Source of the DNA: an uncultured Candidatus Saccharibacteria bacterium
GTDB taxonomy: Bacteria; Patescibacteriota; Minisyncoccia; UBA6257; 2-01-FULL-56-20
DNA length: 64,000 bases
Assembly (NCBI GenBank): GCA_964361595.1
Contig: CAYIAX010000004.1
Coordinates: 615 to 64,614, forward strand
Direction of reading: 5' to 3'
This document shows positions 12,088 through 64,000 of this stretch, piece after piece (positions within the stretch are counted from its first letter, which is position 1; each line of letters opens with the position of its first letter). The notes beneath the pieces were generated by a model, which saw only the letters and a list, made by a program, of their open reading frames with translations, was not told where the DNA came from and did no database searches. The translations under genes were made by a program, and so were the position numbers.

Positions 12088-12105
12088 ACGACTGGCGACG
12101 AGAGC

Positions 12106-22760: not shown

Positions 22761-22828
22761 TAAGCAGTAATTAGTAAGTAGTAGGTGGTAGAAGCGAAGC
22801 GGGCTTGCCCGCCATAGCTTTAGCGAAG

Positions 22829-32995: not shown

Positions 32996-33059
32996 CTTTT
33001 AGAAATAAAAAGTTAAATCTACTAAAAGCTGAAAGCTCGAAGCTCAAAGCTAATAAAAA

Positions 33060-33173
33060 ATGAAGGTCAGAAGTTCCATTAAAAAGATTTGCCAGTCCTG
33101 CAAGGTGGTGAAACGCCAGGGACGGCTTTATGTTATCTGCAAGAATCCCAAGCATAAACAGCGGCAGGGCTAA
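33060..33173 (+). CDS. rpmJ: 50S ribosomal protein L36
   Basis: [37 protein letters not shown] (37 aa; zinc ribbon C..C...C..H). Below the ORF-track length cutoff, so found by hand. Confidence 0.85.
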
Positions 33174-33258
33174 CTAGCTTTTAGCTTTTACCTGCCGGCA
33201 GGCAGGGCTTTGAGCTTATAGTCACTAAAACCTAACAGCTAAAACCTCAAACCTAATT

Positions 33259-51162: not shown

Positions 51163-51663
51163 TTATTTTCCGGCAATTTCCTCTACTGCTTTCTTGATCA
51201 AGGCCTCATCCACGGCCGTGGGAGCAAGTTCGACGGTGCGAATCAGGGCTGCTTTGACCAGGGCCGCCGCTTCTTGTTTCATCGCCCGGCGGGCGGTTTC
51301 CGCCTTACCGGCAATAATCTGATCCGTCTGGGCCAGCATCTCGGTTTCTTTGGTTTTGGCGGCTGCGAGGAGTTCGCCCTCGAGCCGCTTGGCCTTGGCT
51401 TCGGTGGCTTTAATTACAAGCATGGCCTTTTCATCAGCTTCTTTCATTTTGGCTCGCTCGAGCTCCTGGATTTCGCCTAACCGGACTTCGGCCTCTTTGG
51501 CTTTGGTGAGGCCCGCCTCGATTTTCTCCCGCCGGTCCTTGAGGATTTTTAAAATCGGCTTGTAAGCGAAAACGCGCAAGACAACTAGAAGCAGCAAGAA
51601 GTTCACCGCTTGGCTTAAAAGCAATTTCCAGTCGAGGCCTAATTGGTTGATGAGTTCAGACAT
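51163..51663 (-). CDS. atpF: F0F1 ATP synthase subunit b
   Basis: N-terminal TM helix (LLLSQAVNFLLLLVVLRVFAY) plus a long charged helix. Confidence 0.8.
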   Translation of the reverse strand: MSELINQLGLDWKLLLSQAVNFLLLLVVLRVFAYKPILKILKDRREKIEAGLTKAKEAEVRLGEIQELERAKMKEADEKAMLVIKATEAKAKRLEGELLAAAKTKETEMLAQTDQIIAGKAETARRAMKQEAAALVKAALIRTVELAPTAVDEALIKKAVEEIAGK

Positions 51664-51745
51664 AATGCGATGCGAATGATGCGAATCCCATGCGAATACT
51701 GCGAATAATTCGTTGTATTCGCGTGCATTTGCGGATTAGCATTGC
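51664..51745. repeat. AT-type hairpin element (tgcgaat x4, then their complements) between atpE and atpF
   Basis: gcgaatgatgcgaatcccatgcgaatactgcgaataattcgttgtattcgcgtgcatttgcggattagcattgc. Confidence 0.5.
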
Positions 51746-51973
51746 TTAAACGAACTTCAAAATTAACGCGACGACCAGCGCATAAATGGCGATCGCTTCG
51801 GCGAAGGCGATCGCGAGAATCATGGCCGTCTGCACCTTGGGGGCCGCTTCGGGGTTGCGGCCGATCGCATCCGTACCGCGCGAGCCGATCATGCCGATCG
51901 CGATGGCTGGCGCAATCGCACCGACAGCAATCGTGATCATCGGCGCCCACAAACGTACTGTTTCTAGTTCCAT
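51746..51973 (-). CDS. atpE: F0F1 ATP synthase subunit c
   Basis: Two-TM hairpin with a conserved E in helix 2 (AIAFAEAIAIYALVVALIL) and the GRNPE loop. Confidence 0.85.
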   Translation of the reverse strand: MELETVRLWAPMITIAVGAIAPAIAIGMIGSRGTDAIGRNPEAAPKVQTAMILAIAFAEAIAIYALVVALILKFV

Positions 51974-52087
51974 GTAGTTAAAATTCTAAGTTTGCAATTT
52001 TGCAATTCTCAAAAAATTAAGTTGAGTTTTGAAAATTGAAAATTGGGAATTGGAAATTGTGTTTGCGACCTTTTAATGACCAGAATT

Positions 52088-52825
52088 CTATTCATGTGCA
52101 ATGGCGGTGGCAACGAAGACGAGGGACAGCATTGCGAAGACGAAAGCTTGGATGAAACCCACGAAAGTTTCCAAGAAGAGAAACGGAAGCGGAATGAAGT
52201 AAGGAGTGAGGAAAGCGATGATCGTGAGCAAGATTTCGCCGGCAAAGATGTTGCCGAAGAGCCGGAACGAAAACGAGATCAGTTTAGCAACTTCGGAGAT
52301 TAATTCAAGTATGCCGATGAAAAAATCGATCGGTCCCCTGAAATTAAAAAATTTACCCGCGTGCTTTACAAAACCGATGACGGCAATACCCAGAATATTC
52401 ACGGTGACGACGGAAATGACGGCCAAGGCGAGCGTGAAATTGAGATCGCTGCCGGGCGAGCGCAAAAGCGGAACGCGCCCCTCCGCTGTTTCAAAAATGA
52501 CCGAGCCGATGCCGGGCAAAAGCCCAAACCAGTTCGCAGCGAGAATGAAAAGGAAAACGGTGCCCACAAAGGGCAGGTATTTTTCAGCTCGCTCACGGCT
52601 GCCAAGGATTCCTTCCATGAGCCCGAGCGCTCCCTCAATCGCAGTTTCAAAAGTATTTTGAATGTAGCCGGGGACGAGGACTAACCGCCGCCGGCCAATT
52701 GCGGCGAGCGCGGCTAGGATAACCATGACTAGAGTTGAAAGCAAAAGCGCGTTCGTGACGGGAAAGCCGCCGAGGCGGAAAAGTTCTTCGGCGCGGAGTG
52801 AAATATGTATGCCAGATGATTCCAT
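52088..52825 (-). CDS. atpB: F0F1 ATP synthase subunit a
   Basis: Polytopic; RLFGNIFAGE contains the essential Arg. Confidence 0.85.
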   Translation of the reverse strand: MESSGIHISLRAEELFRLGGFPVTNALLLSTLVMVILAALAAIGRRRLVLVPGYIQNTFETAIEGALGLMEGILGSRERAEKYLPFVGTVFLFILAANWFGLLPGIGSVIFETAEGRVPLLRSPGSDLNFTLALAVISVVTVNILGIAVIGFVKHAGKFFNFRGPIDFFIGILELISEVAKLISFSFRLFGNIFAGEILLTIIAFLTPYFIPLPFLFLETFVGFIQAFVFAMLSLVFVATAIAHE

Positions 52826-52949
52826 CCCTCACCCTTAGAGAATTTGCGCAGAGCGCAAGCCCTCAATCTGTTTTGTCCTGGGGACCTTTAGCTCCGAATA
52901 AGTTCTTATTAAAATGTTTTTCATAAAGTGATTCTCTAAGGGTGAGGGA
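52826..52949 (-). repeat. TIR element, atp type, copy 3, upstream of atpB (uORF 52835..52924)
   Basis: Same TIRs and uORF as copy 2. Confidence 0.85.
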
Positions 52950-53321
52950 TTCCCGCCGGACGCCGAAAGCGGCGGCAGGAGAGTAATTATAGGAAAAAGC
53001 GGCTGGAAAAGCAAAACCGATTACAATCTAAAAAAGATAAGGCCGGCGCGGGAGAAAAGCTTGCGTCGGCCTCGGATGTTCGGGTCGTATAGACCCGAGT
53101 GGTCCCCAAAAGGAGGGGCAGCAGCGCAGCAAAAGCTAGCAACCGGGGTTATTTAGAAAATACTGGAACTGGCTTAATTATAGCGCTTGCATTTCGTTTA
53201 TGGAAGGGGAATGTGGATAACCCCAAAGGGCTTTACCGGGATTCAAGCATAAGGAAGCCCCGACGTGCATGGTTGCACCGGGGCTTTTAGCGGAAAATGT
53301 TTGGTGGGAAATACTTCTTAT

Positions 53322-53350
53322 ATCATACCAGTATACAAAATCTTTGTCAA
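53322..53350 (-). promoter_or_regulatory. minus-strand sigma-70-like promoter: TTGACA, 17 bp, TATGAT, reading toward the atp operon (~500-nt leader)
   Basis: Plus strand shows atcata (53322-53327) and tgtcaa (53345-53350), i.e. reverse complements of the hexamers. Confidence 0.45.
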
Positions 53351-53432
53351 GCGCGCTTCCGACGGTATTTGATTGAGTGAATACATAGTTTCCATGATAC
53401 GGAGGCTTGCGCTAACAGGGTTGGATTATCCT

Positions 53433-55247
53433 CTAAACTTTCCTATGTTTAGGCGTAACCCAAAAGCCCAGCCTGAACTTGCCGCCGAGCATCAGCCGCG
53501 TTTGCGCATCAAGACCCGGAAAAGCGCCGAAGACAATCAGAGTTATGGGGATCAAGAGCCACTGCAACGCATACAGGAAATAATGCCACCGGCGGAACCA
53601 GGCCGGCTTGGGGGGCAAAAGCAGTATGGCGAGTATAGCTGAACTGGCGATACCCAACATCGCCAAGCTCATAATGAAGCTTGTAATCTGCGGCAGGCTG
53701 TAAGACAGAAGCGAGTAGCTGAAAGCCTCGCCGCCCAGCCAGAGCGGCAGCCAGCCCAAAGCAAAAATCATGAGGGCGTTCGTCGCCCAGGAATGAAAAC
53801 CTTCGATCGTAATCAATGACCAGTACCATTTTTTCCGCAAGGGTATTTTTTTATCGTATAAAAACCCTTGCCCGCGATCCGAATCTACCAATCCATCCGA
53901 AGTATCCGAATGGCCTTGCTGAATAGGCATATCCGAATAATTCGGGTTGTTGATTCGGTAAGTATTCGGAGCATTCGAATGTAATTCGGATTTTTCGGAT
54001 TGCCTACCACAGAGCATATAAGGAATGTTTTCCGCGCCCCAGCCCCAGCGCCGGTGCTGGCGGTAGGTATTTTTCATCGTACTCCAAAAAGTCGGGCCGA
54101 CGTTTGCATCCATGGATACGGGATAGGATAAGGGCTCCACGCGGAACTCGCCGTTGTAGCGCAGAAATCCCTGCCAGAACACACGCGAGTCTTCGGAAAC
54201 GACATCCTTGTGCCAGAATCCCATATCAACAAGCGCCTGGAAAGGGATTGATTGGGACGAAAAAGATGTGAGCCGTTCCGGCCTCGCCTGCTGCATCATT
54301 TGCCAGAAGGTGGAGGAGAACGAAACTACGCGCGCGAAAGCGGGAGCCTGGTAAATATTGTTAGTGAAGAGCGGCACCGGTTGGTAGATTGCGCGCAGCC
54401 TGTCTTCGGCATTTAAAAATGCATAGGTGAGCCGTCCGAAGTAATCGGGGAAAATTTGCGTGTCAATGTCAAAAACGGAAACCAGAATATTTTCGTAGGA
54501 GAGCGCTGATTCACGCTGACTAGACGCTGACTTGCGCAGAACCTCGCTGGCGGTATCGTTGGTCTGCGTATAGTCTGCGTAAGTCCGCGTATTGACCAAG
54601 GGGTCAATAATTAGCCGCTTGGCTTCTTTGGCGGCCCAGGCTTCGTTCGAACCTTTGCCGGGAATTTCTCCGGGCAAGCCGGCCGGGTGTTTCGTAGTTA
54701 GAAACCTGCGGAAGCGCGCGCCGAATTCCGCTTTGATTTTTTTCGCCGTTTCCGCGGCTTCCTCGCCGCCGCTTGCTTCCGTCGCCAAAACCACGATGAA
54801 TTTGTCCGTGGGATAATTGGCTTTAACCAAACTTCCAAAACTTTCTCGCACGAGCGGATGGGGTTCTTTGTGTATAGGGAAGATGATTAAGTGAATGATT
54901 TCTTTCCAGGATATGCGATTCGAATCTACTAATTCATCCGAATGCTCCGATTCAACAATTCGGGGCATTCGGATGTCATTCGCCTGCCTGCCGGTCAGGC
55001 AGGGATTTTTAGGATCGCTTTGGAGCTTTTTTAATTCCGCGAGCCAATCCACCTTAAGATTGCGCTTCATCTGCCGGAAAGTCGCGCTCAAATGGAGCGA
55101 GAGGTAAACGGTTTTGAGGAGCCAGTAGGTGTCAAAAAGAATGATGAAGATGGCGATAAAAGCGGGAGTGGCCCAGGAGAGGAAAACCATGAGTCCGATC
55201 GTGAGCCAAGCCAGCGCTCCGGGAATAATTTCAAAAAAGCGGTACAT
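53433..55247 (-). CDS. processive family-2 glycosyltransferase (cellulose/chitin-synthase-like) with in-frame GC-type and AT-type element inserts
   Basis: N- and C-terminal TM bundles; DXD (VSVFDIDTQ); QxxRW motif (YRQHRRWGWG). Inserts KSASSQRESALS, NAPNTYRINNPNYSD... and IRMPRIVESEHSDELVDSNRISW. Confidence 0.6.
   Translation of the reverse strand: MYRFFEIIPGALAWLTIGLMVFLSWATPAFIAIFIILFDTYWLLKTVYLSLHLSATFRQMKRNLKVDWLAELKKLQSDPKNPCLTGRQANDIRMPRIVESEHSDELVDSNRISWKEIIHLIIFPIHKEPHPLVRESFGSLVKANYPTDKFIVVLATEASGGEEAAETAKKIKAEFGARFRRFLTTKHPAGLPGEIPGKGSNEAWAAKEAKRLIIDPLVNTRTYADYTQTNDTASEVLRKSASSQRESALSYENILVSVFDIDTQIFPDYFGRLTYAFLNAEDRLRAIYQPVPLFTNNIYQAPAFARVVSFSSTFWQMMQQARPERLTSFSSQSIPFQALVDMGFWHKDVVSEDSRVFWQGFLRYNGEFRVEPLSYPVSMDANVGPTFWSTMKNTYRQHRRWGWGAENIPYMLCGRQSEKSELHSNAPNTYRINNPNYSDMPIQQGHSDTSDGLVDSDRGQGFLYDKKIPLRKKWYWSLITIEGFHSWATNALMIFALGWLPLWLGGEAFSYSLLSYSLPQITSFIMSLAMLGIASSAILAILLLPPKPAWFRRWHYFLYALQWLLIPITLIVFGAFPGLDAQTRLMLGGKFRLGFWVTPKHRKV
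53878..54003. repeat. AT-type element (CCGAAT/ATTCGG units; core gaatctaccaatccatccgaa) in-frame in the GT2 gene
   Basis: Shares a 20-nt core with the copy at 54913-54985 (gaatctactaattcatccgaa). Confidence 0.6.
54503..54592. repeat. GC-type palindromic element in the GT2 gene
   Basis: gcgctgattcacgctgactagacgctgacttgcgcagaacc...ggtctgcgtatagtctgcgtaagtccgcgtattgac. Confidence 0.7.
54913..54985. repeat. AT-type element, second copy in the GT2 gene, plus hairpin cctgcctgccggtcaggcagg
   Basis: cgattcgaatctactaattcatccgaatgctccgattcaacaattcggggcattcggatgtcattcg. Confidence 0.55.
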
Positions 55248-55290
55248 ATTTAGAACCTAGAATTTAAAACCTAGAAGCTAGAAAGTATGA
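55248..55290. repeat. TAGAAC-type satellite (tagaacctagaatttaaaacctagaagctagaaag)
   Basis: The same unit recurs at 57073-57209, 57549-57677 and 58206-58326, partly as inverted arrays. Confidence 0.6.
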
Positions 55291-55382
55291 TTTTCTTAAA
55301 TTTGCCGTGATTGCTTGAAAATTAAGCGTATTCACTATACAGTATAACGGCAGAGCACGGAAATACAGGTAAAAAATCTTTT

Positions 55383-55457
55383 GGCCTCGTCGTCTAGCCT
55401 GGTCCAGGACGCCGCCCTTTCACGGCGGAGACACGGGTTCGAATCCCGTCGGGGCTA
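55383..55457 (+). tRNA. tRNA-Glu (anticodon UUC)
   Basis: Anticodon arm CCGCC-CTTTCAC-GGCGG; T-arm ACGGG-TTCGAAT-CCCGT; D-arm GTCTAGCCTGGTCCAGGAC. Close to E. coli tRNA-Glu. Confidence 0.85.
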
Positions 55458-55505
55458 CAATTATCCACTTTTGTACTAGCGTTTGAGATTGTATAATAAG
55501 TTACG

Positions 55506-56207
55506 ATGGTTCAAAACGCGAAAAAGGCTCGGGCAGTTCAGCTAAGGTTAGCCGGCAAAAGCTATGGGGAAATTACTAAAATTCTCAACGTATCTTCAAA
55601 GGGATTGTTGAGTTACTGGTTTAGAGATTTAGTCTTGCCCGTAAAAGTTAGGAAAAAGCTATCTCGGAAAATAGCCTTTGCTAGAAAACGAGGATTTTTT
55701 AGATTCAATAAAGAACGCACCGCAGCTATTCTTGCCGACAATGAGCTGGTTGCTAAACAAGCCGCCGCTTCCATCAAAAGACTTGCAAAAAACGAACTCC
55801 TCCTGGTTGGCGCAGCTCTTTATTGGGGCGAAGGCACGACAAAAGAACTCGAATATGGTTATCAGCGCATTTCCTTTTCTAACTCGAACCCCATTATGGT
55901 AAAAATTTTTATGAGGTTTCTCCGCGAGATTTTAAGTGTTGAAGATGACAAGATTAAAGCTGGTATTCATATCCATCCGAACATTAGTGCGGAAGCAGCA
56001 AAAAAATTTTGGTCAAAAGTAACCGGTTTAGATGCAGGAAAGTTCTATATTTTCAATCAAATCAGCCGCGCGAGCCAACTAAAGCGGCCACCAAATTTTC
56101 TCCCCTACGGAACAATCAACATTCGGGTTAGCAATAGGCAATTGTTTTATAAAATTAAAGGATATATTAACGGGATTATTGCACAACTGGCATCTGAAGC
56201 AATTTGA
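55506..56207 (+). CDS. HTH protein with a possible LAGLIDADG-like endonuclease domain, next to tRNA-Glu
   Basis: N-terminal HTH (AVQLRLAGKSYGEITKILNVSSKG); LLLVGAALYWGEGT resembles a single LAGLIDADG motif with E replacing D. Pattern-level call only. Confidence 0.35.
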   Translation: MVQNAKKARAVQLRLAGKSYGEITKILNVSSKGLLSYWFRDLVLPVKVRKKLSRKIAFARKRGFFRFNKERTAAILADNELVAKQAAASIKRLAKNELLLVGAALYWGEGTTKELEYGYQRISFSNSNPIMVKIFMRFLREILSVEDDKIKAGIHIHPNISAEAAKKFWSKVTGLDAGKFYIFNQISRASQLKRPPNFLPYGTINIRVSNRQLFYKIKGYINGIIAQLASEAI

Positions 56208-56220
56208 TATACTTATTGTA

Positions 56221-57072
56221 ATGCAGGATAAATCTATTCCAGATTCCAGATTCCAGATTCTAGATTCTCGCCGGGGTTTCACCATCCTTGAGCTTTTGAT
56301 TTTCACCGCGATTTTTACCGGCGCGGCGATGGCGTTTATCGCGATCCTGGTGGCGGTTACGCGCGTCCACGTCCGCCAGAACGCGATGGCCGAGGTAACG
56401 CAGCAAAGCCAATTCCTGCTGACCACGATTCAGCGCTACGTCGAACAGTCGAGCGCCATCGAAATGGCCAACGATTCGACGACGAGCACCTTAAAGCTTC
56501 GCATGGCTTCGACGACCGGCGATCCCGCCTATATTTATTTGTCGGGAACGACCGTCTACCTGAAACAAACGGAGAGTGGCACGGCCGAGCCTTTGACTTC
56601 GGACAAGGTGCAGATAACAAGTTTGAATTTCGCCAAGCGGTCTAATCCCGGCGGCCACGATTCGGTGAGCGTGGCCTTTCTGATGAACTATAACGCGACG
56701 AACATTCAGCACCGCTTCACGAATGAAATTGATACTGCGATCGGCCGGGTCTCCGCGGCCACTTTTGATTCGAACATTTTGCCTTCGACCGGGAACACTT
56801 ACCGCCTGGGCACGGCGGCGGCGGATTGGCAGGCGATCAACAACACGATTTATTTCAGCGGCTCGAACGTGGGCGTGGGGGTTGCCTCGCCAGGCCAGAC
56901 GCTCGAGGTAAACGGCGGCGTGCGCTTGAATACGACGACCGGGAAGCCGACTTGCGACTCTACCCAGCGCGGCACGCTGTGGGTAACGCAGTCCGCGAGC
57001 GGCACCAAGGATTATGTCCAGGCCTGTATTCGCAGTTCTACGAGCACGTTTTACTGGGCAACTTTAGATTAG
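56221..57072 (+). CDS. type IV pilin-like protein (class III signal peptide) with a long C-terminal domain
   Basis: Prepilin motif RRGFTILELLIFTAIFTGAAMAFIAILV (G|FT(L/I)xE). C-terminal SGSNVGVGVASPGQTLEVNGG echoes the giant-protein repeat. Confidence 0.7.
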   Translation: MQDKSIPDSRFQILDSRRGFTILELLIFTAIFTGAAMAFIAILVAVTRVHVRQNAMAEVTQQSQFLLTTIQRYVEQSSAIEMANDSTTSTLKLRMASTTGDPAYIYLSGTTVYLKQTESGTAEPLTSDKVQITSLNFAKRSNPGGHDSVSVAFLMNYNATNIQHRFTNEIDTAIGRVSAATFDSNILPSTGNTYRLGTAAADWQAINNTIYFSGSNVGVGVASPGQTLEVNGGVRLNTTTGKPTCDSTQRGTLWVTQSASGTKDYVQACIRSSTSTFYWATLD

Positions 57073-57209
57073 AACCTAGAAGCTAGAATTCAGAATCTAG
57101 AATCGCTTTTAAAACCTAGAAGTTAGAATTTAGAACCCAGAAGAAACATGATCGAAACTTTTTAATCATAAATTCTAAATTCTAGGTTCTAGATTCTAGA
57201 TTCTGCACA
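57073..57209. repeat. TAGAAC satellite arranged as an imperfect large palindrome
   Basis: ttagaacctagaagctagaattcagaatctagaatc ... cataaattctaaattctaggttctagattctagattctg. Confidence 0.6.
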
Positions 57210-57548
57210 ATGACCAAATCTTTCAAGGAGCTTCTGGTTTGGCAAAAAGCCAAGGAATTAGCCGTTGAAATTTATAAGCTGACGGAAGAATTTCCAAACT
57301 CTGAAATTTATGGTTTAAGCAGCCAGATGCGAAGAGCTGTTATTTCGATTTCTTCTAATATCGCGGAAAGCTACCAGCGTTTTCATAAAAAAGAAAAAGA
57401 CCAATTACTTGCAGTGGCTTACGGTTCGGGCGCGGAGCTTGAAAGCCAGATTGAAATAGCAAGGGAGTTGTTCCCTAGCTTAAAATATGAAAAAGCAGAT
57501 GCGATTCTTTTGGAAGTTATGAAAATGCTTAACAATTTCCTGCATTAA
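57210..57548 (+). CDS. four-helix-bundle protein (TIGR02436 / '23S rRNA intervening-sequence protein' family; Avd-like fold)
   Basis: KELLVWQKAKELAVEIYKLTEEFPNSEIYGLSSQMRRAVISISSNIAESYQRF...AYGSGAELESQIEIAREL. Confidence 0.8.
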   Translation: MTKSFKELLVWQKAKELAVEIYKLTEEFPNSEIYGLSSQMRRAVISISSNIAESYQRFHKKEKDQLLAVAYGSGAELESQIEIARELFPSLKYEKADAILLEVMKMLNNFLH

Positions 57549-57677
57549 GTCAATTTCCAGCTTCCAGCTTCCAGCTTCCAGCTTCTAAGTTTGCTTGTGG
57601 ATAAACTATTTACCGGCTTGTTATATACTATTATTGAGTATTCTAGGTTCTAAATTCTGAATTCTAGATTCTAAACA
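57549..57677. repeat. simple repeats: (ccagctt)x4 followed by an inverted TAGAAC-type array
   Basis: ccagcttccagcttccagcttccagcttc ... ttctaggttctaaattctgaattctagattctaaac. Confidence 0.55.
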
Positions 57678-58205
57678 ATGTCCAACAAACAAATCATCTA
57701 TGTTGTGATCGCCGTCGCCATCGCGGGTTCCTTGGTTGCCTATTTTGTTTCGCGCAAAGGGAGTAGCGCGCCGGAATCCGAACTTAGCCAGCAAGGAGGC
57801 CAAGGCTTGGTTACGCGGGAAGTGGCGCCGGAGAATATCGCAGTTCCGGAAAAAGATTCCGGTAACGTTCCGGAAAATGTCGCCAAGCCCGAGCAGGTAT
57901 CGCCGGCGGCGGCTGGAGTAGAGGAAGATATGCGGACATTTTCGATTACCGTGTCGGGAAATAAATTTTCGCCGGACACAGTGATTGCTCGTGTCGGCGA
58001 CATCATTAAATTGAATTTCACCGCCGTCGACAAAAATTATGAATTTACCCAGCCGGATTATGGCTTTAAGGCCCAGCTCCCGAAAGGACAAACGGTTTCC
58101 GTAACCTTCGGCGTGAACGGCGAAGGCAAGTTCCTTTTCTACTGCGGCAGCTGCGGCGGGCCGTCACAGGGTCCGGTGGGATATATTATTGTGGTGAAAA
58201 GATAA
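57678..58205 (+). CDS. membrane-anchored cupredoxin-like domain protein
   Basis: N-terminal TM helix, then GDIIKLNFTAVDKNYEFTQPDYGFKAQLPKGQTVSVTF...GKFLFYCGSCGG, which resembles the Cupredoxin_1 pattern. Confidence 0.5.
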   Translation: MSNKQIIYVVIAVAIAGSLVAYFVSRKGSSAPESELSQQGGQGLVTREVAPENIAVPEKDSGNVPENVAKPEQVSPAAAGVEEDMRTFSITVSGNKFSPDTVIARVGDIIKLNFTAVDKNYEFTQPDYGFKAQLPKGQTVSVTFGVNGEGKFLFYCGSCGGPSQGPVGYIIVVKR

Positions 58206-58326
58206 GAACCTAGAATTTAGAACCTGGAATCTGGAAAATACGAATTATGCTATTACTAAAAAAGTCGATCGGTTTTTAAAGTTTTAAATTCTAGATTCTG
58301 AATTCTAGGTTCTAAATTCTAATCTC
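58206..58326. repeat. TAGAAC satellite, forward and inverted arrays
   Basis: gaacctagaatttagaacctggaatctgg ... aaattctagattctgaattctaggttctaaattctaatc. Confidence 0.55.
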
Positions 58327-58773
58327 ATGTTAAATAAAAAACTTTTAGGAATTTTAGTCGCGGTCATCGTTGTTCTCGTTCTGGTCGGCGTCTGGGTGGG
58401 GGTTAAACTTACCGGAAACGGCGCTGACGAGCCCTCGGAATATTCGGCGGTTTACCTTTCAAGCGGCGATATTTATTTCGGCAAACTCTCCTGGTTCCCG
58501 TGGCCCAAAATTAAAAATGTTTGGTACATCCAGCGGGGAGTGGACGCGCAGAATCAGCCCCAGCTGGGACTTGCGCCTTTCACTTCCGTTTTCTGGGGTC
58601 CGGTTGACGAAGTTTCCTTAAATCCCAAAGAAATTCTTTTTTGGACGCGCTTGCGCGAAAGCAGCCAGCTTGTGCAGGCCTTCAGGAACCCGCAAGCGGT
58701 CCAGCCGCCGCCCGCGAATCAGCAGGTTTCACCAGGGCAGCAGCAAAATCCCACAAGCGGAAACCCTCAATAG
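58327..58773 (+). CDS. hypothetical membrane-anchored protein, Q/P-rich C-terminus
   Basis: TM helix LLGILVAVIVVLVLVGVWVGV; C-terminal low complexity (PQAVQPPPANQQVSPGQQQNPTSGNPQ). Confidence 0.5.
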   Translation: MLNKKLLGILVAVIVVLVLVGVWVGVKLTGNGADEPSEYSAVYLSSGDIYFGKLSWFPWPKIKNVWYIQRGVDAQNQPQLGLAPFTSVFWGPVDEVSLNPKEILFWTRLRESSQLVQAFRNPQAVQPPPANQQVSPGQQQNPTSGNPQ

Positions 58774-58820
58774 TAAGTAGAAAGTGGTAGGTAGTAGGTG
58801 GAATATGGGACGATAAAAAC

Positions 58821-59192
58821 ATGACCGAAGGATCAAATATAAAATCCTTTCGGGATTTAAACATTTGGCAGAAAACAAAAGCCTATGCAGTAGCTTTGTA
58901 CAAAGTCACCGAGCAATTTCCTCGATCCGAGCTTTACGGGTTAACCAATCAAATCCGGCGCGCGGCGGTTTCTATGCCTGCGAATATCGCCGAAGGATTT
59001 AGGAGAAAGACAAAAAAAGAAAAACTGCAGTTTTTACGGATTGCCTATGGGTCAGGAGCTGAATTGGAGACACACCTCGAAATCAGCCGCGACTTGAATT
59101 ATTTGCCGGAAACATCGTATGCAAATCTGGCGCTTGAGTTGGAAAGCATTATGAAAATGATGAATTCAGCTCTCCGCTCTCTGGAAAGCTGA
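58821..59192 (+). CDS. four-helix-bundle protein (TIGR02436 / Avd-like), second copy
   Basis: FRDLNIWQKTKAYAVALYKVTEQFPRSELYGLTNQIRRAAVSMPANIAEGFRR...AYGSGAELETHLEISRDL. Confidence 0.8.
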   Translation: MTEGSNIKSFRDLNIWQKTKAYAVALYKVTEQFPRSELYGLTNQIRRAAVSMPANIAEGFRRKTKKEKLQFLRIAYGSGAELETHLEISRDLNYLPETSYANLALELESIMKMMNSALRSLES

Positions 59193-59291
59193 AATAGCAG
59201 GATAATTGTCTACCACCTACCACCTACCACCAAATACTTGTCCACAGCCGTTAAATCCCCGGGTTCTATATAATAAAGGTAAATACGCAGC

Positions 59292-62200
59292 ATGAACCAG
59301 CAAGCTCGGACATACCGGAGAAAATTAGCCTGGAGTTTAATCAGCTTAATTTCGCTCGCTATTCTACCACCTACCACCTACCACCTACTACCTACCGCAA
59401 ACGCCTTCACCGGCCCGTCCTCGGGCGGCGGCGTGGGCACGGGCGCGATCGGCGTGAATTCGGCCAATAACTTGAGCGTCGGCACCTCGACGCCGCTTGC
59501 CGAGACCAAGTTTTTGATCGTGGCTTCCAGCTCGGCCGACAGCGCGAACTTTGCGGTTAAAGTCAGCTACCCCTTGAGTACGCCGATCTTGTGGGTGCGG
59601 AACGACGGCAAGGTCATGATCGGCACCTCCACGCCCATTTCCGCCGCGGCTCTGACGGTGCAGGGCGACATTTATGCAACCGGCAACTTGTATGGCACTC
59701 TTTCCGGCGCAGTTTTAGCTGCAAACGTTACGTCCGACGTCTTCGGCCGCCTGCAGGGCAACGGGAATTTCGCTTTTCCGGCCTCGCTAGGTGTCGGCAC
59801 TTCTTCGCAGGCGGGACTGCCGCAGGAACTCTCGGTTTATGGCGATGCGTATGTAACGGGCAGCGTCGGCATCGGGACGACGGGGCCGGGGGCAAAGTTA
59901 CAAGTTCTTGGAGGGAATGTGCTTGTTGGTGGCTATGGTACTGGAACGGAATATGGCATTCTGTTGTCGCCAAGCGATGCTGGTAACTACCACTGGATAG
60001 CTCAAATTGCTGGTACTAAGTTGCAGATTGGCTCAGGAAACGTTATTGGTACATCTCCTCAAGTTACTATTGACAACTCCGGCAACGTTGGCATCGGGAC
60101 GACGGGACCGAGTTCAAAGCTGGATGTTAAGGGAAGCGCAGGAGCATTGACCGATTACGGCATCGCCACGATTGAAGAACCAACTCAAAATAGAGGTATT
60201 TCTTTTGGATTCGATACTACAAATGACTGGACATGGGTTTACAGCCGAGATGTTGGAGTGGAAAGTAAACCAATAAGATTTAATGATTTATTTTTTGTTG
60301 GCAAAGGAAACGGCAACGTCGGCATCGGGACGACGAATCCGAGTGATTTATTAACGGTGGTGACAAGTGCCCAGGGGACTGGCGGTATGTCAATTCAACA
60401 AGCTACCAATGAGGGACTATGGTTCAGGCCGGATAATTCTGCTGGCGCGTCCAATCCTCTCGTTCAGGCCGGGGACAAGAGTATTATATTTAGTGCTGGG
60501 TCTATCGAAACAGGTAATCTCGTCATTGCGCCTTGGTCGGCTAGCAGTTATGGAGTACGTATAACGAATACCGGCAACGTCGGCATCGGGACGACGAATC
60601 CGAACGCTATGCTGGATGTTGCGGGTACGATTAACGGGCGGAACTACGCCGTTCCAGATACGGGAGCAACGTCGCAATGGGCAAAGCTAGGCACATTTAC
60701 TGCAGGGCAGGCTGGCCATACAATCCGTGTCGTCGCATACATCCACAACGGTTTTAATGCTGTAAACTCTCAAGATAGCGTTTATACCATAACTTTCAAG
60801 ACCTCTAACGGTTCAAGCGTAGACGGCAACGGCTTTGCAGGAAATGGAAGCTGGTACGCAATCGGTTTCAATTCTCAAATCCCATCTGGCAATATCAAGT
60901 GGAAGGCGAATGCCGCCGGGGTGAGCGCGACCTCATATGATCTCTATATTCTCTTGCCCATTTTTACCACTAATAGCCACTACGCTGTCTCCGTGGTTTC
61001 AACCGCAAGCTGGACAAATGTCGGATCAATTGGTCAGACTGACCCAGGCATTGCGAGCGCCTCGGTACTTATACCGACACCAGAGTTCAATGTGCCTTAC
61101 GGCAGCGTCGGCATCGGGACGACGGGGCCTGCCACTAAACTCGAAGTAGATGGGGATACGACACTTCTAGTTCCGTCTACTGTTGCCACTGCGACGACGG
61201 ATTATGCATTAAGGCTTTTCGACAATAGGACGAGAACGGCCAATAACGCTCAAGCGATTATATTTCAAAATGCTTCAACAGAGCATTTCGCGCGGATTGA
61301 AGTTACTGATTTGGGTGGTGGCGGTAACGCGGCGGCACGTATGGATTTCAAGGTAAACAGTGCCGCAGAGGGGACTAATCCAACCTCGCGCCTGACAATT
61401 CTAAATAGCGGCAACGTCGGCATCGGGACGACCAACCCCACGAGCACCCTCACTGTCGTCGGCGAAATCAAAACCACCTCCGGCGGCGTCCGCTTCCCCG
61501 ACGCCACCCTCCAGACCACGGCCTACACCGGCACTTCCACCCAGGTGGTCTCGGCCGCGAACGTCTCGGCCGACGTCTTCGGCCGCCTGCAGGGCAACGG
61601 GAATTTCGCTTTTCCGGCCTCGCTCGGCGTCGCCACCTCGACGCAGGTCGGCTTGCCCCAGGAACTTTCGGTATATGGCGATATCTATGCCTCTGGCAAC
61701 GTCGGCATCGGGACGACGAGTCCAAACGCGGGATTGCAAATTAGCGGCGGCAACGTTCATGTGCAGGGTTCTTTCAGCAACAGTAATCAGTTAAGAATTA
61801 CCGGAACGGGAGCCGCGGGTACGGGCAACGATGCGATTCTCCGTTTTGATACGTCCAGCAATAGCCGAGTGATATATGTGGATGAAAGTGATTCAAACAA
61901 AATGAAGTTTACTGGCGGTGGAGCAACGGATTTGGTCACAATAGATAACAGCGGCAATGTCGGCATCGGGACGACGGGGCCAAACCGAAGGCTTACGATA
62001 GGAAATCCTGGAGCGGTAAGTACCAATACACAACTGCTCTACCTTAAACAGCCCAATGATTATGGTTACTCATTCAATATCGATGATTCTGTTACTGGTC
62101 GTATGTATCTCCAAGGAGTCAATGCTGGTGTTGAATCAAACATTATGACTCTTGACAGAACAACCGGCAACGTCGGCATCGGGACGACGGGGCCGGTGAC

Positions 62201-64000
62201 CAAGCTCCAAGTGGGTTTGGATGCTCCGGGAAGTGGGACTCAAGAGCACATGCGGTTCTCCAATGCCGCGAACAGTGTGGCATACCTATTGATTGGCACC
62301 ATCGCGGGAGGAACACCGCCAGCGTATATTTCAACTGACGGAAGCGGTCGTCCGCTAGTCTTGCAGAATAACGGCGGCAACGTCGGCATCGGGACACCCC
62401 AATCGGGGACAGCACCGGCTGAGAGACTTCACGTGATCAACAATGTGTCAGCCGCTCTTGGCTATTCACTGAAGTTACAGAATGACGACACCATCGACTC
62501 TGGAACTACGGGGACAGGCATTCTGTTTGCGGTAGGCAGTGGCGGCGCTGCTCGCGGGAAGGGTGGATTGGTTTATGCTTATCCAACTGGCGGCGGCACG
62601 TGGAATCGCGGGAATTTTTATTTCCTGCAAAACAGTGTAGCAGATGCGAGCACTCCAACACTGGCAAATTCAGTTGTAACCATAACGAATACCGGCAACG
62701 TCGGCATCGGGACGACGGGGCCAGGTGCGAAGCTGGATGTAGCGGGAACCATGCGCATAAGAGACCAAGGAGACAATGTCCTTTCGGTGCTTCAATCCTC
62801 TAAAACTTACCAGCTTATCGGGACTTACTCGGGGTGGGATGCGAATGCGATTTATCTTGGTGGTTACAATGCCACAAACAACCCGCAGAATTCCTCCAGC
62901 ACCCGGGTCATTGTCGGCGGCTCCGGTTCCACCCTGCCGCTCGACGTTACCGGTGTTCTTACCGTCTACGGCAGCGGAAATTCTAGTTTTGCCGGCAACG
63001 TCGGGATTGGGACGACTACGCCAAGTGCAAAACTAGAAATACAAGCGGCACAGAATGCCGCTCATTTAGAATTGGAGAGCACTGGCAGCGGTGCAAGAAG
63101 GTGGGGTTTGATAGTTAATCCTGGCTGGGCGGCTGGCTCCTTAAGTTTGTATGATTTAACTTCTGACAGTGCAAGGTTATTGATTGACACCTCCGGCAAC
63201 GTCGGCATCGGGACGACCCAGCCATCTTCAACCTTGCACGTCATCGGCGACATCCGCGCCTCGGGCAACCTTTACGGCACTTTTAGCGGCGCGGTCTCGG
63301 CCGCCAACGTCTCGGCCGACGTCTTCGGCCGCCTGCAGGGCAACGGGAATTTCGCTTTTCCGGCCTCGCTCGGCGTCGCCACCTCGACGCAGGTCGGCTT
63401 GCCCCAGGAACTTTCGGTATATGGCGATATCTATGCCTCTGGCAACGTCGGCATCGGGACGACGGGGCCAGTAGCGAAACTACATGTGTATGATGGGTCA
63501 ACCAGTGCTTATCTCAAAATACAAGCCCCCTTGGCAAGCCAGAGTGCACTTGAGTTTGCAGACAACACAAATGGTCAAGACATTGTGATTTATCGTTTCC
63601 AAGGGACAAGGGATTTAAGTATCTGGACGCCAACTGCCAGCGATATTGTTCGAGTGACACAAGGCGGCAATGTCGGCATCGGGACGACGGGGCCGCAGCA
63701 AAAACTTCATTTCTCTCCAGGAAGCTTTATTGGATTACCTATATCATCTCCTTATGTCCCTGCTACATGGCAAAGAGGGGGTACAGGTATTATTTTGGCT
63801 GGAGCGCAGAATACAGACGGGACCGGCTGGAATTACGGTAGCAGAATGACTGTGTCGGATTACGGTGATGGCTTAGGTACCTCGATAGACGCGTTGGCAA
63901 ACGGAACATGGTATAATGACGCATTGTTTATTAGTGGACGGTCTGGCAGATATGGATACGTCGGCATCGGGACGACGGGGCCAGCGCAAACACTTGACGT
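59292..64000 (+). CDS. giant secreted/cell-surface fibre-like repeat protein (>1569 aa, 3' end off the window) with ~16 copies of the motif (S/T)GNVGIGTT(G/N/S)PxxKLxV
   Basis: Frame 0 stays open from ATG 59292 to the window end (hand translated); absent from the ORF track because it has no stop. N-terminal TM/signal WSLISLISLAIL. Periodic ggcaacgtcggcatcgggacgacggggcc DNA repeat every 200-300 bp. Confidence 0.8.
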   Translation, partial: MNQQARTYRRKLAWSLISLISLAILPPTTYHLLPTANAFTGPSSGGGVGTGAIGVNSANNLSVGTSTPLAETKFLIVASSSADSANFAVKVSYPLSTPILWVRNDGKVMIGTSTPISAAALTVQGDIYATGNLYGTLSGAVLAANVTSDVFGRLQGNGNFAFPASLGVGTSSQAGLPQELSVYGDAYVTGSVGIGTTGPGAKLQVLGGNVLVGGYGTGTEYGILLSPSDAGNYHWIAQIAGTKLQIGSGNVIGTSPQVTIDNSGNVGIGTTGPSSKLDVKGSAGALTDYGIATIEEPTQNRGISFGFDTTNDWTWVYSRDVGVESKPIRFNDLFFVGKGNGNVGIGTTNPSDLLTVVTSAQGTGGMSIQQATNEGLWFRPDNSAGASNPLVQAGDKSIIFSAGSIETGNLVIAPWSASSYGVRITNTGNVGIGTTNPNAMLDVAGTINGRNYAVPDTGATSQWAKLGTFTAGQAGHTIRVVAYIHNGFNAVNSQDSVYTITFKTSNGSSVDGNGFAGNGSWYAIGFNSQIPSGNIKWKANAAGVSATSYDLYILLPIFTTNSHYAVSVVSTASWTNVGSIGQTDPGIASASVLIPTPEFNVPYGSVGIGTTGPATKLEVDGDTTLLVPSTVATATTDYALRLFDNRTRTANNAQAIIFQNASTEHFARIEVTDLGGGGNAAARMDFKVNSAAEGTNPTSRLTILNSGNVGIGTTNPTSTLTVVGEIKTTSGGVRFPDATLQTTAYTGTSTQVVSAANVSADVFGRLQGNGNFAFPASLGVATSTQVGLPQELSVYGDIYASGNVGIGTTSPNAGLQISGGNVHVQGSFSNSNQLRITGTGAAGTGNDAILRFDTSSNSRVIYVDESDSNKMKFTGGGATDLVTIDNSGNVGIGTTGPNRRLTIGNPGAVSTNTQLLYLKQPNDYGYSFNIDDSVTGRMYLQGVNAGVESNIMTLDRTTGNVGIGTTGPVTKLQVGLDAPGSGTQEHMRFSNAANSVAYLLIGTIAGGTPPAYISTDGSGRPLVLQNNGGNVGIGTPQSGTAPAERLHVINNVSAALGYSLKLQNDDTIDSGTTGTGILFAVGSGGAARGKGGLVYAYPTGGGTWNRGNFYFLQNSVADASTPTLANSVVTITNTGNVGIGTTGPGAKLDVAGTMRIRDQGDNVLSVLQSSKTYQLIGTYSGWDANAIYLGGYNATNNPQNSSSTRVIVGGSGSTLPLDVTGVLTVYGSGNSSFAGNVGIGTTTPSAKLEIQAAQNAAHLELESTGSGARRWGLIVNPGWAAGSLSLYDLTSDSARLLIDTSGNVGIGTTQPSSTLHVIGDIRASGNLYGTFSGAVSAANVSADVFGRLQGNGNFAFPASLGVATSTQVGLPQELSVYGDIYASGNVGIGTTGPVAKLHVYDGSTSAYLKIQAPLASQSALEFADNTNGQDIVIYRFQGTRDLSIWTPTASDIVRVTQGGNVGIGTTGPQQKLHFSPGSFIGLPISSPYVPATWQRGGTGIILAGAQNTDGTGWNYGSRMTVSDYGDGLGTSIDALANGTWYNDALFISGRSGRYGYVGIGTTGPAQTLD
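59706..59886 (+). repeat. intragenic long repeat, copy A (diverged) of a ~174-bp module
   Basis: Shares a 57-bp identical core (gtccgacgtcttcggccgcctgcagggcaacgggaatttcgcttttccggcctcgct) with copies B and C. Confidence 0.7.
61545..61718 (+). repeat. intragenic long repeat, copy B (174 bp)
   Basis: Identical to copy C except for one g/c difference. Encodes ANVSADVFGRLQGNGNFAFPASLGVATSTQVGLPQELSVYGDIYASGNVGIGTT. Confidence 0.85.
63291..63464 (+). repeat. intragenic long repeat, copy C (174 bp)
   Basis: See copy B. Confidence 0.85.

Follow-up and report, generated by a model that had tools for sequence, protein, structure and literature searches.

A probable secreted surface fibre of a Patescibacteria bacterium and its homology with phage tail fibres and Bdellovibrio MAT fibres

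MAT (mosaic adhesive trimer) fibres, which resemble phage tail fibres, serve the predator Bdellovibrio in seizing its prey. To our knowledge, no other cellular relatives of the protein described here have been characterised in both structure and function. Named examples are Bd2133 (PDB 8OND), Bd3182, Bd1334 and Bd2439 (Caulton et al. 2024, PMC10769870). All 21 MATs of B. bacteriovorus have in common a ~130-aa beta-rich N-terminal domain, and these fibres, the closest characterised relatives of the present one, bind ligands (PMC10769870). Host recognition by Patescibacteria is largely unknown outside Saccharibacteria, in which type IV pili, regarded as host-attachment organelles (10.1101/2024.11.25.624915; PMC10633639), and unnamed adhesins have been implicated (PMC10633639, PMC11665869). 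The findings discussed below tie the abundant, unstudied CPR giants annotated as 'tail fiber domain-containing' to the Bdellovibrio MAT fibres, and suggest that one phage-derived fibre scaffold serves two unrelated bacterial groups, each of which lives on other bacteria. We found no paper in the open literature that links MAT fibres to Patescibacteria.

The stretch of DNA analysed here (64,000 nucleotides, hereafter the window) ends within a gene whose product is likely a secreted fibre of great length on the surface of an ultra-small groundwater bacterium of the Patescibacteria (Parcubacteria/Paceibacteria-type, near Liptonbacteria), homologous to both phage tail fibres and MAT fibres. Judged by sequence, the fibre is a newly found member of a large known family; a CPR-specific N-terminal head is defined here. 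The features of the gene are as follows.

59292..64000, + strand: fibre gene, 5' part, 1569 codons in the window, with its 3' end beyond the available sequence
59292..59405, + strand: predicted Sec signal peptide, aa 1-38 (judged on sequence features rather than by a dedicated predictor)
59406..59666, + strand: conserved N-terminal head (FTGPS..GVGTGAIGV..NLSVGTSTP..KFLIVASS..VRNDG..)
59664..59905, + strand: X-unit copy 1 (..AANVTSDVFGRLQGNGNFAFPASLGVGTSSQAGLPQELSVYGD..), from blastn and pairwise module scores
59859..63974, + strand: 16 module junctions, G(N/S/Y)VGIGT(T)xPxxKLxV, each opening one module
59859, 60081, 60312, 60573, 61101, 61410, 61695 and 61953, + strand: starts of junctions 1-8
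62166, 62376, 62694, 62994, 63195, 63441, 63666 and 63954, + strand: starts of junctions 9-16
60624..61058, + strand: globular beta-sandwich cassette in module 4, aa 445-589 (AF2 model, Foldseek)
61529..61724, + strand: X-unit copy 2
63275..63470, + strand: X-unit copy 3

An earlier, sequence-only reading of this DNA had placed a signal or TM segment at the N-terminus, and the features found there fit a Sec signal peptide: a basic n-region (MNQQARTYRRK), an h-region (LAWSLISLISLAIL) with a hydrophobic core of 13-14 residues, and a long c-region (PPTTYHLLPTANA), with a predicted cut at ANA|FTGPS. The mature start that this cut would leave, F-x-G-P(-S), is kept in 18 homologues. The head that follows is 53-61% identical to its homologues, whereas identity over the whole protein is ~30%. 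In a scan of 185,579 species genomes, full-length head matches were confined to Patescibacteria, and a Pseudobdellovibrio locus matched just the generic junction part. The subfamily sharing the head comprises 749 representatives (50% clustering, E<=1e-10). The head is in its turn a specialised form of the fibre module; an AF2 monomer model of it was unusable (pLDDT 43).

The window protein carries 16 G(N/S/Y)VGIGT motifs between aa 190 and 1555, spaced 67-176 aa apart (median 83), in good agreement with the ~16 repeats of ~70-100 aa that had been proposed. The recurring DNA repeat noted at the same time was likewise recovered: the 29-mer occurs 13 times at <=3 mismatches, always on the + strand within the ORF, compared to 0 expected from 100 shuffles. 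Comparison of the internal repeats by blastn and pairwise module scores further displayed a higher-order pattern, in which a ~65-aa unit (the X-unit) together with the following module recurs three times. The X-unit directly follows the head in all close homologues, and copies 2 and 3 are 95% identical at the DNA level over 196 nt, including 159 identical bases shared by 61559-61717 and 63305-63463, 1746 nt apart. Module 4 contains an insert of ~160 aa, for which the core of the AF2 model reached pLDDT ~85-93; this cassette is a shuffled domain, which 13 of 120 homologues carry elsewhere along the protein. The fibre gene of a syntenic locus, L003, contains a 228-nt tandem duplication (98% identity) that amounts to ~2.1 copies of a 76-aa stretch. 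Recombination between near-identical junction or X-unit sequences could lead to gain and loss of modules and to cassette swapping, and might in this way diversify the length and specificity of the fibre.

The tail-fibre- or beta-helix-like character that had been ascribed to the repeats is borne out by homology. PHROGs tail-fibre families match the fibre with E values of 1e-45 and 6e-41, and phmmer aligns it with the trimeric beta-helix fibre Bd2133 (8OND) at 1.6e-13. A profile of the junctions searched against the PDB matched five Bdellovibrio MAT fibre proteins and nothing else, 8OND being hit in three stretches (E 6e-19), followed by 8OL4/8ONF, 8OML, 8OJN/8ONB/8ONC and 8ON4. In 8OND, the matched motifs fall where the beta-helix domains reported in PMC10769870 start and end. 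Pfam and NCBIfam gave no significant match to the 1569 residues of the fibre; PF13884 was among the families not found in that span, the true C-terminus lying beyond the available sequence. More than 2000 homologues were retrieved (E<=1e-10), many of them from Patescibacteria; the name 'tail fiber domain-containing protein' and the PF13884 domain are frequent among them. The best database entry is 33% identical over half of the query, with no near-identical entry, and relatives from cultured phages are few and weak (three cyanophage records, ~30% identity). The tips of the homologues are highly varied, and include S74, a YEYVIDF...SYRLxGKRFDW domain, F5/8 type C, LamG and others. In two syntenic orthologues the gene is complete, and the tips differ: the Peptidase_S74 intramolecular chaperone in L003 (E 2e-14) and a tip other than Peptidase_S74 in P0059.

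The analogy to MAT and phage fibres makes the protein a probable host-attachment fibre, of the trimeric tail-fibre/MAT-like adhesin kind. We infer trimer formation from the homology and from the S74 trimerisation chaperone of the L003 orthologue, and surface display and binding from the same analogy. Three chains would be exported by Sec, lose the leader at ANA|F, and intertwine into a homotrimeric beta-helical rod at least 60 nm long, as scaled from Bd2133 (370 residues corresponding to ~14-15 nm). The conserved head would stay near the cell, held by an envelope component, the natural candidates being the three conserved membrane or pilin-like proteins encoded upstream. The variable distal tip, located beyond the available sequence, would bind to a structure on the surface of a host or partner cell. 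Since the tips are swappable, they are candidate determinants of host range. Patescibacteria have no outer membrane, which is where MAT fibres sit; the anchoring of the present fibre must therefore differ from theirs.

We likewise questioned whether a surface fibre of this kind might have a main job other than adhesion, serving as a glycan depolymerase, a toxin-delivery stalk, or a passive spacer or coat. The active domain of a tailspike-like depolymerase or of a toxin would in that case sit in the missing C-terminus, and an enzymatic or toxic tip may exist, as the receptor-binding end lies beyond the available sequence. Foldseek matched the module 4 cassette to phage tail fibres (Gp37-type) and tailspike-like proteins, the best PDB match being WceF, an enzyme that modifies glycans and has a tailspike fold, and the viral matches including EPS-depolymerase fibres; the variety of homologue tips points in the same direction. 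However, the part of WceF and the depolymerases that is matched is the non-catalytic beta-sandwich (TM ~0.45-0.55), not the catalytic beta-helix, the 1569 residues scanned contain no enzymatic or toxin Pfam domain, and the ligand binding of MAT fibres argues for adhesion. We therefore regard a main function other than adhesion as unlikely.

Positions 59292-64000 of the + strand form a single open frame with zero stops, compared to 48-73 stops apiece in the remaining five frames. Positions 52823-64000 of the window (11.2 kb, the whole window ORF included) recur with 100% identity in L074, an independent ENA assembly from the 0.1 um fraction of Hainich groundwater well H43, which adds 489 nt. 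These extend the fibre ORF to 1732 codons (5.2 kb) and 18 motifs, the extra 163 residues making up two further modules, and the ORF is still open at the contig end; a stop-free run of 1732 codons is expected by chance at ~5e-34, as computed from base composition. The very long, incomplete ORF of >1560 aa that had been claimed thus stands, at 1569 codons in the window and at least 1732 in L074, and the frame, for which interruption by stops in raw reads had been named beforehand as the contrary outcome, is unbroken in the second assembly. The extension that had been advised at the 3' end succeeded in part: 489 nt were gained, and no stop codon was reached. GTDB species genomes and JGI metagenomes contained no exact match to a 53-mer from 63870-63922.

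Nevertheless, the length of the fibre could be mis-estimated. Because X-unit copies 2 and 3 are identical over 159 bases, beyond a comfortable short-read span, the copy number of the block between them rests on the assembler, and the reported coverage is only ~3-5x. A block between near-identical units might have been joined wrongly or assembled in the wrong number of copies, making the length partly an assembly artefact; two other assemblies of the site end at codons 153-157, within X-unit copy 1, and the syntenic orthologues are shorter, at 1041 and 1174 aa. Set against this, the window and L074 match at every base over 11.2 kb, the frame is open throughout 5.2 kb, and homologues of 2000-2700 aa are common. 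In addition, the modules between the repeats differ from one another, and thus do not form a simple collapsed or expanded tandem array. An artefactual length is, on balance, improbable.

The fibre is the last gene of a cluster encoding a GT2-like membrane protein, a pilin-like protein, a cupredoxin-like protein, a small TM protein and the fibre, a conserved arrangement that recurs, at 40-61% identity, in at least 12 further genomes of Patescibacteria. Its upstream members are as follows.

53433..55247, - strand: 604-aa polytopic membrane protein, GT2-like (the L073 orthologue matches Glyco_trans_2_3)
56221..57072, + strand: type IV pilin-like protein (..RRG|FTILELLIF..), conserved cluster gene
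57678..58205, + strand: membrane-anchored cupredoxin-like protein, conserved cluster gene
58327..58773, + strand: 148-aa protein with one N-terminal TM helix, conserved cluster gene

The GT2-like gene, inverted here, comes first in the cluster in 11 other genomes, in which it lies on the same strand as the rest. The C-terminal part of the pilin-like protein contains one fibre junction motif (SNVGVGVASPGQTLEVNG, nt ~56845-56934), and even distant loci have a cupredoxin-like homologue directly 5' of the fibre. The four conserved envelope genes that accompany the fibre gene provide concrete anchor candidates, among which the 148-aa TM protein is a putative membrane dock. The 59 kb upstream hold housekeeping genes including gyrB, gatB, lepA, dnaG, alaS, ATP synthase and tsaD, and the LepA of the window is nearest to named Candidatus Liptonbacteria, Parcubacteria and Paceibacterota proteins (62-69% identity); both observations agree with the CPR-like cell proposed by the sequence-only reading. 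As read from its housekeeping surroundings, the conserved cluster and the signal peptide, the fibre gene is chromosomal, and cellular rather than viral. An origin as the fibre of a prophage virion, a tailocin or a contractile injection system would account for the PHROGs families annotated 'tail fiber', the weakly related cyanophage structural proteins and the phage-like module 4 cassette, but we rejected this origin as highly improbable on gene context, since the 59 kb upstream contain no phage structural, tail or baseplate genes, the pilin-like, cupredoxin-like, TM protein and fibre neighbourhood recurs in at least 12 genomes and is followed by recG in L003 and L073, and virion fibres need no N-terminal Sec leader.

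Beyond the attachment fibre itself, a wider proposal is that it forms the distal part of an undescribed, Parcubacteria-wide host-attachment apparatus encoded by the conserved cluster, with expression controlled by the arrays described below; the fibre would then dock on a pilin-like or membrane adaptor instead of an outer membrane. We hold this wider proposal to be doubtful.

A separate observation concerns tandem heptamer arrays, which surround gene starts as long inverted repeats and extend in-frame into the part of the fibre gene that encodes the signal peptide, and whose loops enclose four-helix-bundle (23S-IVS-protein-like) genes. This side finding may be more novel than the fibre itself. 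The elements near the fibre start are as follows.

58773..58801, + strand: upstream heptamer arm (GTAAGTAGAAAGTGGTAGGTAGTAGGTGG), complementary to 59213-59239 and to the signal-peptide array
58821..59192, + strand: four-helix-bundle gene (23S_rRNA_IVP/bAvd-like), between the upstream arm and the fibre gene
59210..59231, + strand: CTACCAC x3 array, just 3' of the four-helix-bundle gene and 60 nt 5' of the fibre ATG
59364..59396, + strand: in-frame heptamer array, CTACCAC x4.7, encoding LPPTTYHLLPT in the signal-peptide c-region

The arrays at 59364-59396 and 58773-58801 are complementary over 29 nt (86%). Both fibre genes of L003 share this arrangement, and the leader peptide of the pilin-like gene is likewise heptamer-encoded (56236-56267). 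The four-helix-bundle gene is missing from the equivalent position in L003 and L073. The 5' hairpin was found in the window, in both L003 fibre genes and, in degenerate form, in L073, and was absent from 14 other loci sharing the N-terminal head; it is thus confined to this lineage, and we rejected a conserved regulatory role for it across the fibre family. Nor is one common mRNA-hairpin mechanism supported, because a conserved TATAAT box (identified by eye) lies upstream of the left arm in L003 and downstream of it in the window and L073. Rfam returned no known RNA at the hairpins, and a promoter and terminator scan upstream of the fibre yielded nothing useful. The heptamer tract is identical in L074, L075 and L076, the three other assemblies covering it, with no sign of phase variation (these being consensus sequences, in which minority variants are invisible). 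We also considered whether the fibre is the target of a diversity-generating retroelement, and rejected this on three grounds: the scanned ORFs of the window include no reverse transcriptase, the bAvd-like matches of neighbouring genes fall below the Pfam cut-off (those to 23S_rRNA_IVP lie above it), and mismatches between the internal fibre repeats are not adenine-specific. The arrays, as 25-45 bp inverted repeats around the start codon, may switch or limit expression of the fibre in this lineage, conceivably by slippage frameshifts, by inversion or by RNase III-type cleavage of the hairpin, and the hairpins could serve as landing sites for the four-helix-bundle genes.

Several known systems invite comparison. 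Trimeric autotransporter adhesins of the YadA/Hia type resemble the fibre, by analogy, in being long, repetitive, modular and shuffled surface fibres. They are anchored via a C-terminal outer-membrane barrel, which would be unusable in the Patescibacteria envelope, whereas the conserved end of the present fibre is N-terminal. Pfam and NCBIfam identified no YadA-type head, stalk or anchor motif in the available 1569 aa, a span that does not cover the C-terminus, which does not support this assignment. The type IV pili of Saccharibacteria share with the fibre the status of a proposed Patescibacteria host-attachment structure, and a pilin-like gene is part of the fibre cluster; the fibre, however, is not a pilin, and a physical link between fibre and pilus is speculation. 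With phage fibres and spikes capped by Peptidase_S74 (PF13884; endosialidase, T5 pb1 type) the present protein probably shares the trimeric fibre type. The likeness extends to the PHROGs tail-fibre matches, to the PF13884 ends of the L003 orthologue and many homologues, and to the Gp37-type fibre domains resembled by the beta-sandwich cassette. In contrast to those fibres, the present protein has a secretion signal, no phage context and no S74 in the sequence available, and is only ~30% identical to cultured-phage fibres, in three records. By sequence, it belongs to the same family as the 'tail fiber domain-containing' and 'beta strand repeat-containing' proteins of Patescibacteria, Margulisiibacteriota and Elusimicrobia MAGs, both names being automatic NCBI annotations that are unstudied.

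The comparison with MAT fibres is the closest. In both, a signal peptide is followed by a conserved N-terminal region and by a long rod of beta-helix-type modules delimited by (T/S)GN(V/L)G(I/L)GT..P...L.V, and in both the gene is chromosomal and belongs to a bacterium living on other bacteria. The tips are mosaic and swappable in each case, with S74 and non-S74 versions among the present orthologues. The two nevertheless differ in several respects. The present head is a Patescibacteria-specific family with no counterpart detected in Bdellovibrio loci by the head scan, the protein is much longer (at least 1732 aa compared to ~1000), and it contains the thrice-repeated internal X-unit and an in-rod beta-sandwich cassette. 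Its gene is clustered with pilin-like and cupredoxin-like genes, and its product would be displayed by an organism without an outer membrane.

The sequence-only reading had described a giant, incomplete ORF built from ~16 repeats. From position 59292 the fibre frame runs for 1569 codons to the window end without a stop; across the same 4.7 kb, 48-73 stops interrupt each of the other five frames, and local base composition gives a chance of ~5e-34 for an open run of this size. The encoded protein holds 16 copies of the G(N/S/Y)VGIGT motif, spaced by 67-176 residues (median 83). The recurrence of the underlying DNA repeat, proposed at the same time, was borne out, as a 29-mer occurs in 13 copies (<=3 mismatches), all on the + strand inside the ORF, compared with none in 100 shuffles. 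An independent ENA assembly (L074; Hainich groundwater well H43, 0.1 um fraction) is identical to window positions 52823-64000 and extends the contig. There the ORF reaches 1732 codons, with 18 motifs, and remains open where that assembly stops; the original size estimate was correct, albeit slightly understated. The C-terminus, which lies beyond the available sequence, may carry an enzymatic or toxic tip. Read coverage is only ~3-5x, and two copies of one internal unit, 1746 nt apart, have 159 identical bases in common, the copy number of the block between them being as assembled at that coverage. Inflation of the fibre by assembly is possible but unlikely, because the two assemblies are concordant and the modules are non-redundant.

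L074 is otherwise identical but lacks 1658 bp of the ATP synthase operon (window 51165-52822), joining 51164 to 52823 via a ~129-nt stretch alignable to both sites. The gap reflects variation in the population or a difference in assembly.

The N-terminal signal or TM segment noted previously was likewise recovered. Residues 1-38 resemble a Sec signal peptide, with MNQQARTYRRK, a 13-14 residue hydrophobic core and an unusually long c-region (PPTTYHLLPTANA), followed by F-T-G-P-S; the mature start F-x-G-P is kept in 18 homologues, directly behind each one's own leader. Next come a head of ~90 residues (..GVGTGAIGV..NLSVGTSTP..KFLIVASS..VRNDG..) and a ~65-residue X-unit (AANV..VFG..GNFAFPASLGV.TS.Q.GLPQELSVYGD), which together are 53-61% identical to the best homologues, compared with ~30% for the remainder. 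The rest of the protein consists of modules, each starting ..(V/L)(T/R)I.N.GNVGIGTT.P..KL.V.G. The X-unit is found three times in the fibre protein:

aa 125-204, first X-unit copy
aa 746-811, second X-unit copy
aa 1319-1398, third X-unit copy

Since each copy is followed by one of the related modules m1, m7 and m14, the fibre has a higher-order repeat pattern. Module 4 holds a 160-residue insert, predicted from a 12-sequence alignment as a ~10-stranded beta-sandwich (core pLDDT ~85-93). Of the 120 fetched homologues, 13 have the same cassette, at quite different positions and with identity up to 65%. Its model lies nearest in the PDB to a domain of tailspike-like WceF and Acinetobacter phage tailspikes (E 1e-5, TM 0.46), and has 29 matches at E<1e-3 among predicted viral structures; almost all of those with names are of the tail-fibre, tail or tailspike/depolymerase type, such as Gp37 of Shigella phage JK38 (E 7e-9, TM 0.55).

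Searches of Pfam and NCBIfam with the fibre protein returned no match. The suggested resemblance to tail-fibre or beta-helix repeats nonetheless held, as two PHROGs 'tail fiber protein' families matched at 1e-45 and 6e-41, and comparison with all PDB sequences returned Bd2133 (8OND, 1.6e-13) and another Bdellovibrio 'cell wall surface anchor family protein'. A profile built from 14 module junctions matched only five distinct PDB proteins, namely 8OND (6e-19, three stretches), 8OL4/8ONF, 8OML, 8OJN/8ONB/8ONC and 8ON4, which we take to be the mosaic adhesive trimer (MAT) fibres of Caulton et al. 2024 (PMC10769870). MAT fibres have a signal peptide and a conserved ~130-aa N-terminal domain, followed by a rod of trimeric beta-helix and a tip that varies and may or may not include the Peptidase_S74 chaperone; they were shown to be surface-displayed trimers, and a glycan ligand was identified for Bd2439 (PMC10769870). 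Because the matched motifs of 8OND sit at the borders of its two beta-helix domains (as defined in PMC10769870), we infer that each fibre module may form a single segment of trimeric beta-helix, jointed at the motif. A large protein collection contained >2000 fibre homologues at E<=1e-10, many of them 1000-2700 aa long, many named 'tail fiber domain-containing protein' and many with PF13884, from Liptonbacteria, Paceibacterota, Kaiser-, Roizman-, Gracili- and Moraniibacteria, Margulisiibacteriota, Elusimicrobia and others. None was close, the best having 33% identity across half of the query, and cultured phages gave just three weak matches, all cyanophages.

Scanning the head alignment against GTDB (one genome per species) gave full-length matches in Patescibacteria MAGs only, comprising Liptonbacteria, Jorgensenbacteria, Paceibacter, Minisyncoccia and bins labelled Saccharibacteria; at a Pseudobdellovibrio locus the match was confined to the generic junction part. 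An exhaustive profile search at E<=1e-10 returned 749 representatives (50% clusters), in most of which the head occupies residues ~30-130. The profile also gives many internal multi-stretch matches, which shows that the fibre module itself, in specialised form, makes up the head. Attribution of the window to a CPR-like cell was supported by its chromosomal genes (gyrB, gatB, lepA, dnaG, alaS, class I aaRS, ATP synthase, tsaD), LepA having 62-69% identity with named proteins of Liptonbacteria, Parcubacteria and Paceibacterota and 100% identity with an entry on a 65,103-bp contig.

Window 56.2-64 kb is syntenic with two related loci (L003 and L073), in the shared order pilin-like, cupredoxin-like, ~150-aa single-pass membrane protein and fibre, with recG following on the opposite strand. 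Using tblastn of the window neighbours against all fetched loci, we found the GT2-like 604-aa membrane protein, pilin-like, cupredoxin-like, TM protein and fibre genes in the same order and strand in at least 12 other Patescibacteria genomes (40-61% identity), and at more distant loci a cupredoxin-like gene is still directly 5' of the fibre gene. This genomic context, its conserved synteny and the N-terminal leader contradict assignment of the fibre to a prophage, tailocin or eCIS. The fibre gene was also considered as a DGR target and rejected.

The type IV pilin-like protein (window 56221-57072) has a class III leader (..RRG|FTILELLIF), weak N-terminal GspJ/ComGF similarity and one fibre junction motif near its C-terminus (SNVGVGVASPGQTLEVNG; hhalign E 2.5e-6); its gene is conserved beside the fibre gene in at least 12 genomes, and the protein is a possible adaptor linking pilus or membrane to the fibre. 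Two complete syntenic orthologues, of 1041 and 1174 aa, have unlike ends: the L003 tip combines Peptidase_S74 (E 2e-14) with a coiled coil, that of P0059 reads ..GGLTVGAFYRNGADPDMVAVVH, and other head-bearing homologues share a third conserved end domain (..YEYVIDF..GSDLW..SYRLxGKRFDW..). The first L003 fibre gene contains a 228-nt tandem duplication (4773-5262; 2.1 copies, 98% identity, about the length of one 76-aa module), which is therefore recent. The frame of the second L003 paralogue (9860-12305) is apparently broken, with overlapping ORFs at 9860-11512 and 11346-12305.

Heptamer arrays and 23S_rRNA_IVP/bAvd-like four-helix-bundle (IVP-family) genes lie at these positions:

window 59364-59396, CTACCAC x4.7 array encoding the c-region of the fibre signal peptide
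window 59210-59231, second array (x3), 5' of the fibre ATG
window 58773-58801, complementary heptamer array
window 58821-59192, IVP-family gene between the complementary arms
window 57210-57548, IVP-family gene in an array loop
L003 298-678 and L073 3500-3760, IVP-family genes in array loops
window 56236-56267, L003 698-739 and L073 3786-3812, heptamer-encoded leader of the pilin-like gene
window 55248-55292, 57060-57204, 57555-57585, 57640-57675, 58205-58322, 58771-58801, 59210-59231, 22758-22791 and 33025-33256, intergenic heptamer arrays

In both L003 fibre paralogues (AGTAGGT)n directly precedes the ATG, while (CTACTAC)5 occupies the same position in the leader, ~110 nt away; these arms fold as near-perfect ~25-45 bp stems (dG -90 and -68 kcal/mol; z -8.2 and -5.6). 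L073 has a 94-nt upstream array with a degenerate partner in the leader. The heptamer unit varies among genomes, yet the two arms still match one another. As 14 other loci with the same head lack this pairing at the fibre 5' end, it is a feature of this lineage's genome rather than of the fibre family. In the three syntenic regions, each of the five IVP-family genes occupies a loop enclosed by inverted arrays, an arrangement that repeats the 23S rRNA intervening sequence architecture (long stem, ORF in loop), but in protein-gene leaders. Their insertion site varies with the genome, lying ahead of the pilin-like, cupredoxin-like or fibre gene, and this variation suggests that they are mobile into hairpin loops. 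Since the fibre-leader tract is identical in all three other covering assemblies (L074, L075 and L076), and a putative -10 box, found by eye, falls on differing sides of the left arm in different genomes, we claim no regulatory mechanism; slippage, inversion and RNase III-type processing are possibilities. Rfam contained no family matching the arrays. More generally, intergenic spacers are packed with such arrays in both orientations (TAGAAYC/AGAATTT types, TTCCAGC, CTACCAC, GTAAGTA), forming 25-45 nt inverted repeats that bracket genes; L003 and L073 have the same kind with other units. The arrays are reminiscent of the heptameric STRR repeats in cyanobacteria.

Repeat DNA is also read in-frame inside proteins, as in the fibre (59364-59396) and pilin-like (56236-56267) leaders. 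The fibre-leader peptide LPPTTYHLLPT shares its origin with TTYHLPPTTY, which lies within the C-terminal domain of homologue P0031, and RESASSQRESAL, SNLEISKSRNLEIS and IPDLIGDPVDSRLHGNDREG occur at one loop of that domain in others (homologues with such peptides: P0031, P0101, P0040, P0015). Tandem repeats of ~10 nt, likewise translated in-frame, lie within housekeeping coding regions:

8011-8318, gatB
12349-12389, coding region
15406-15442, coding region
44385-44425, class I aaRS
54562-54592, coding region

Those in GatB encode ..SADLRGPDADRRGNFLRESALSQRESASL.. and ..TADDRGSNADQRGNGL.., and the peptide SQRESA is found again in P0101 and in the 604-aa membrane protein (53433-55247), which is unrelated. 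Such repeats resemble the in-frame insertions of palindromic elements in Rickettsia. Many Patescibacteria LepA proteins are 750-810 aa long with an inserted PF13366 (PDDEXK_3, 'GxxExxY protein') domain (P0125, P0127, P0140, P0142, P0156, P0162, P0177), another small gene family appearing as an insertion in conserved genes of Patescibacteria. The class I aminoacyl-tRNA synthetase (tRNA-synt_1 + Anticodon_1; window 41749-44568, - strand) contains a complete His_Phos_1 histidine-phosphatase domain (E 7e-47) at residues 491-661, splitting its catalytic domain.

Taken together, these findings demonstrate that the fibre gene is a real secreted-type ORF in a cellular, conserved context, that its product is by sequence homologous to the solved trimeric MAT rods and carries a phage-fibre-type cassette, and that orthologues carry variable tips. 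In the mechanism we propose, Sec would export the fibre with cleavage at ANA|F, and the product would homotrimerise as a beta-helical rod of at least 60 nm for at least 1694 mature residues, scaled from Bd2133 (370 residues for ~14-15 nm; PMC10769870). One of the conserved membrane or pilin-like proteins encoded upstream would keep the conserved head at the envelope, and the distal tip, beyond the available sequence, would bind a surface structure of a host or partner. Membership of the tail-fibre/MAT-like trimeric structural class is highly probable on homology, adhesion is by a narrow balance the favoured main function, and the reading as a whole is likely.

A giant fibre in a CPR cell will not surprise a specialist. 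What is new is that the homology to MAT structures is made explicit, that the head is specific to Patescibacteria, that the X-unit is repeated three times and that the five-gene neighbourhood is conserved; the gene cluster and the heptamer/IVP architecture are testable leads. The literature searched contained no paper linking Patescibacteria to MAT or tail-fibre-like fibres. Homology places this protein as a tail-fibre/MAT-like, predicted trimeric surface fibre of a very large, automatically annotated, unstudied Patescibacteria family, in which tips are exchanged while the base is conserved, precisely what makes the MAT fibres 'mosaic'.
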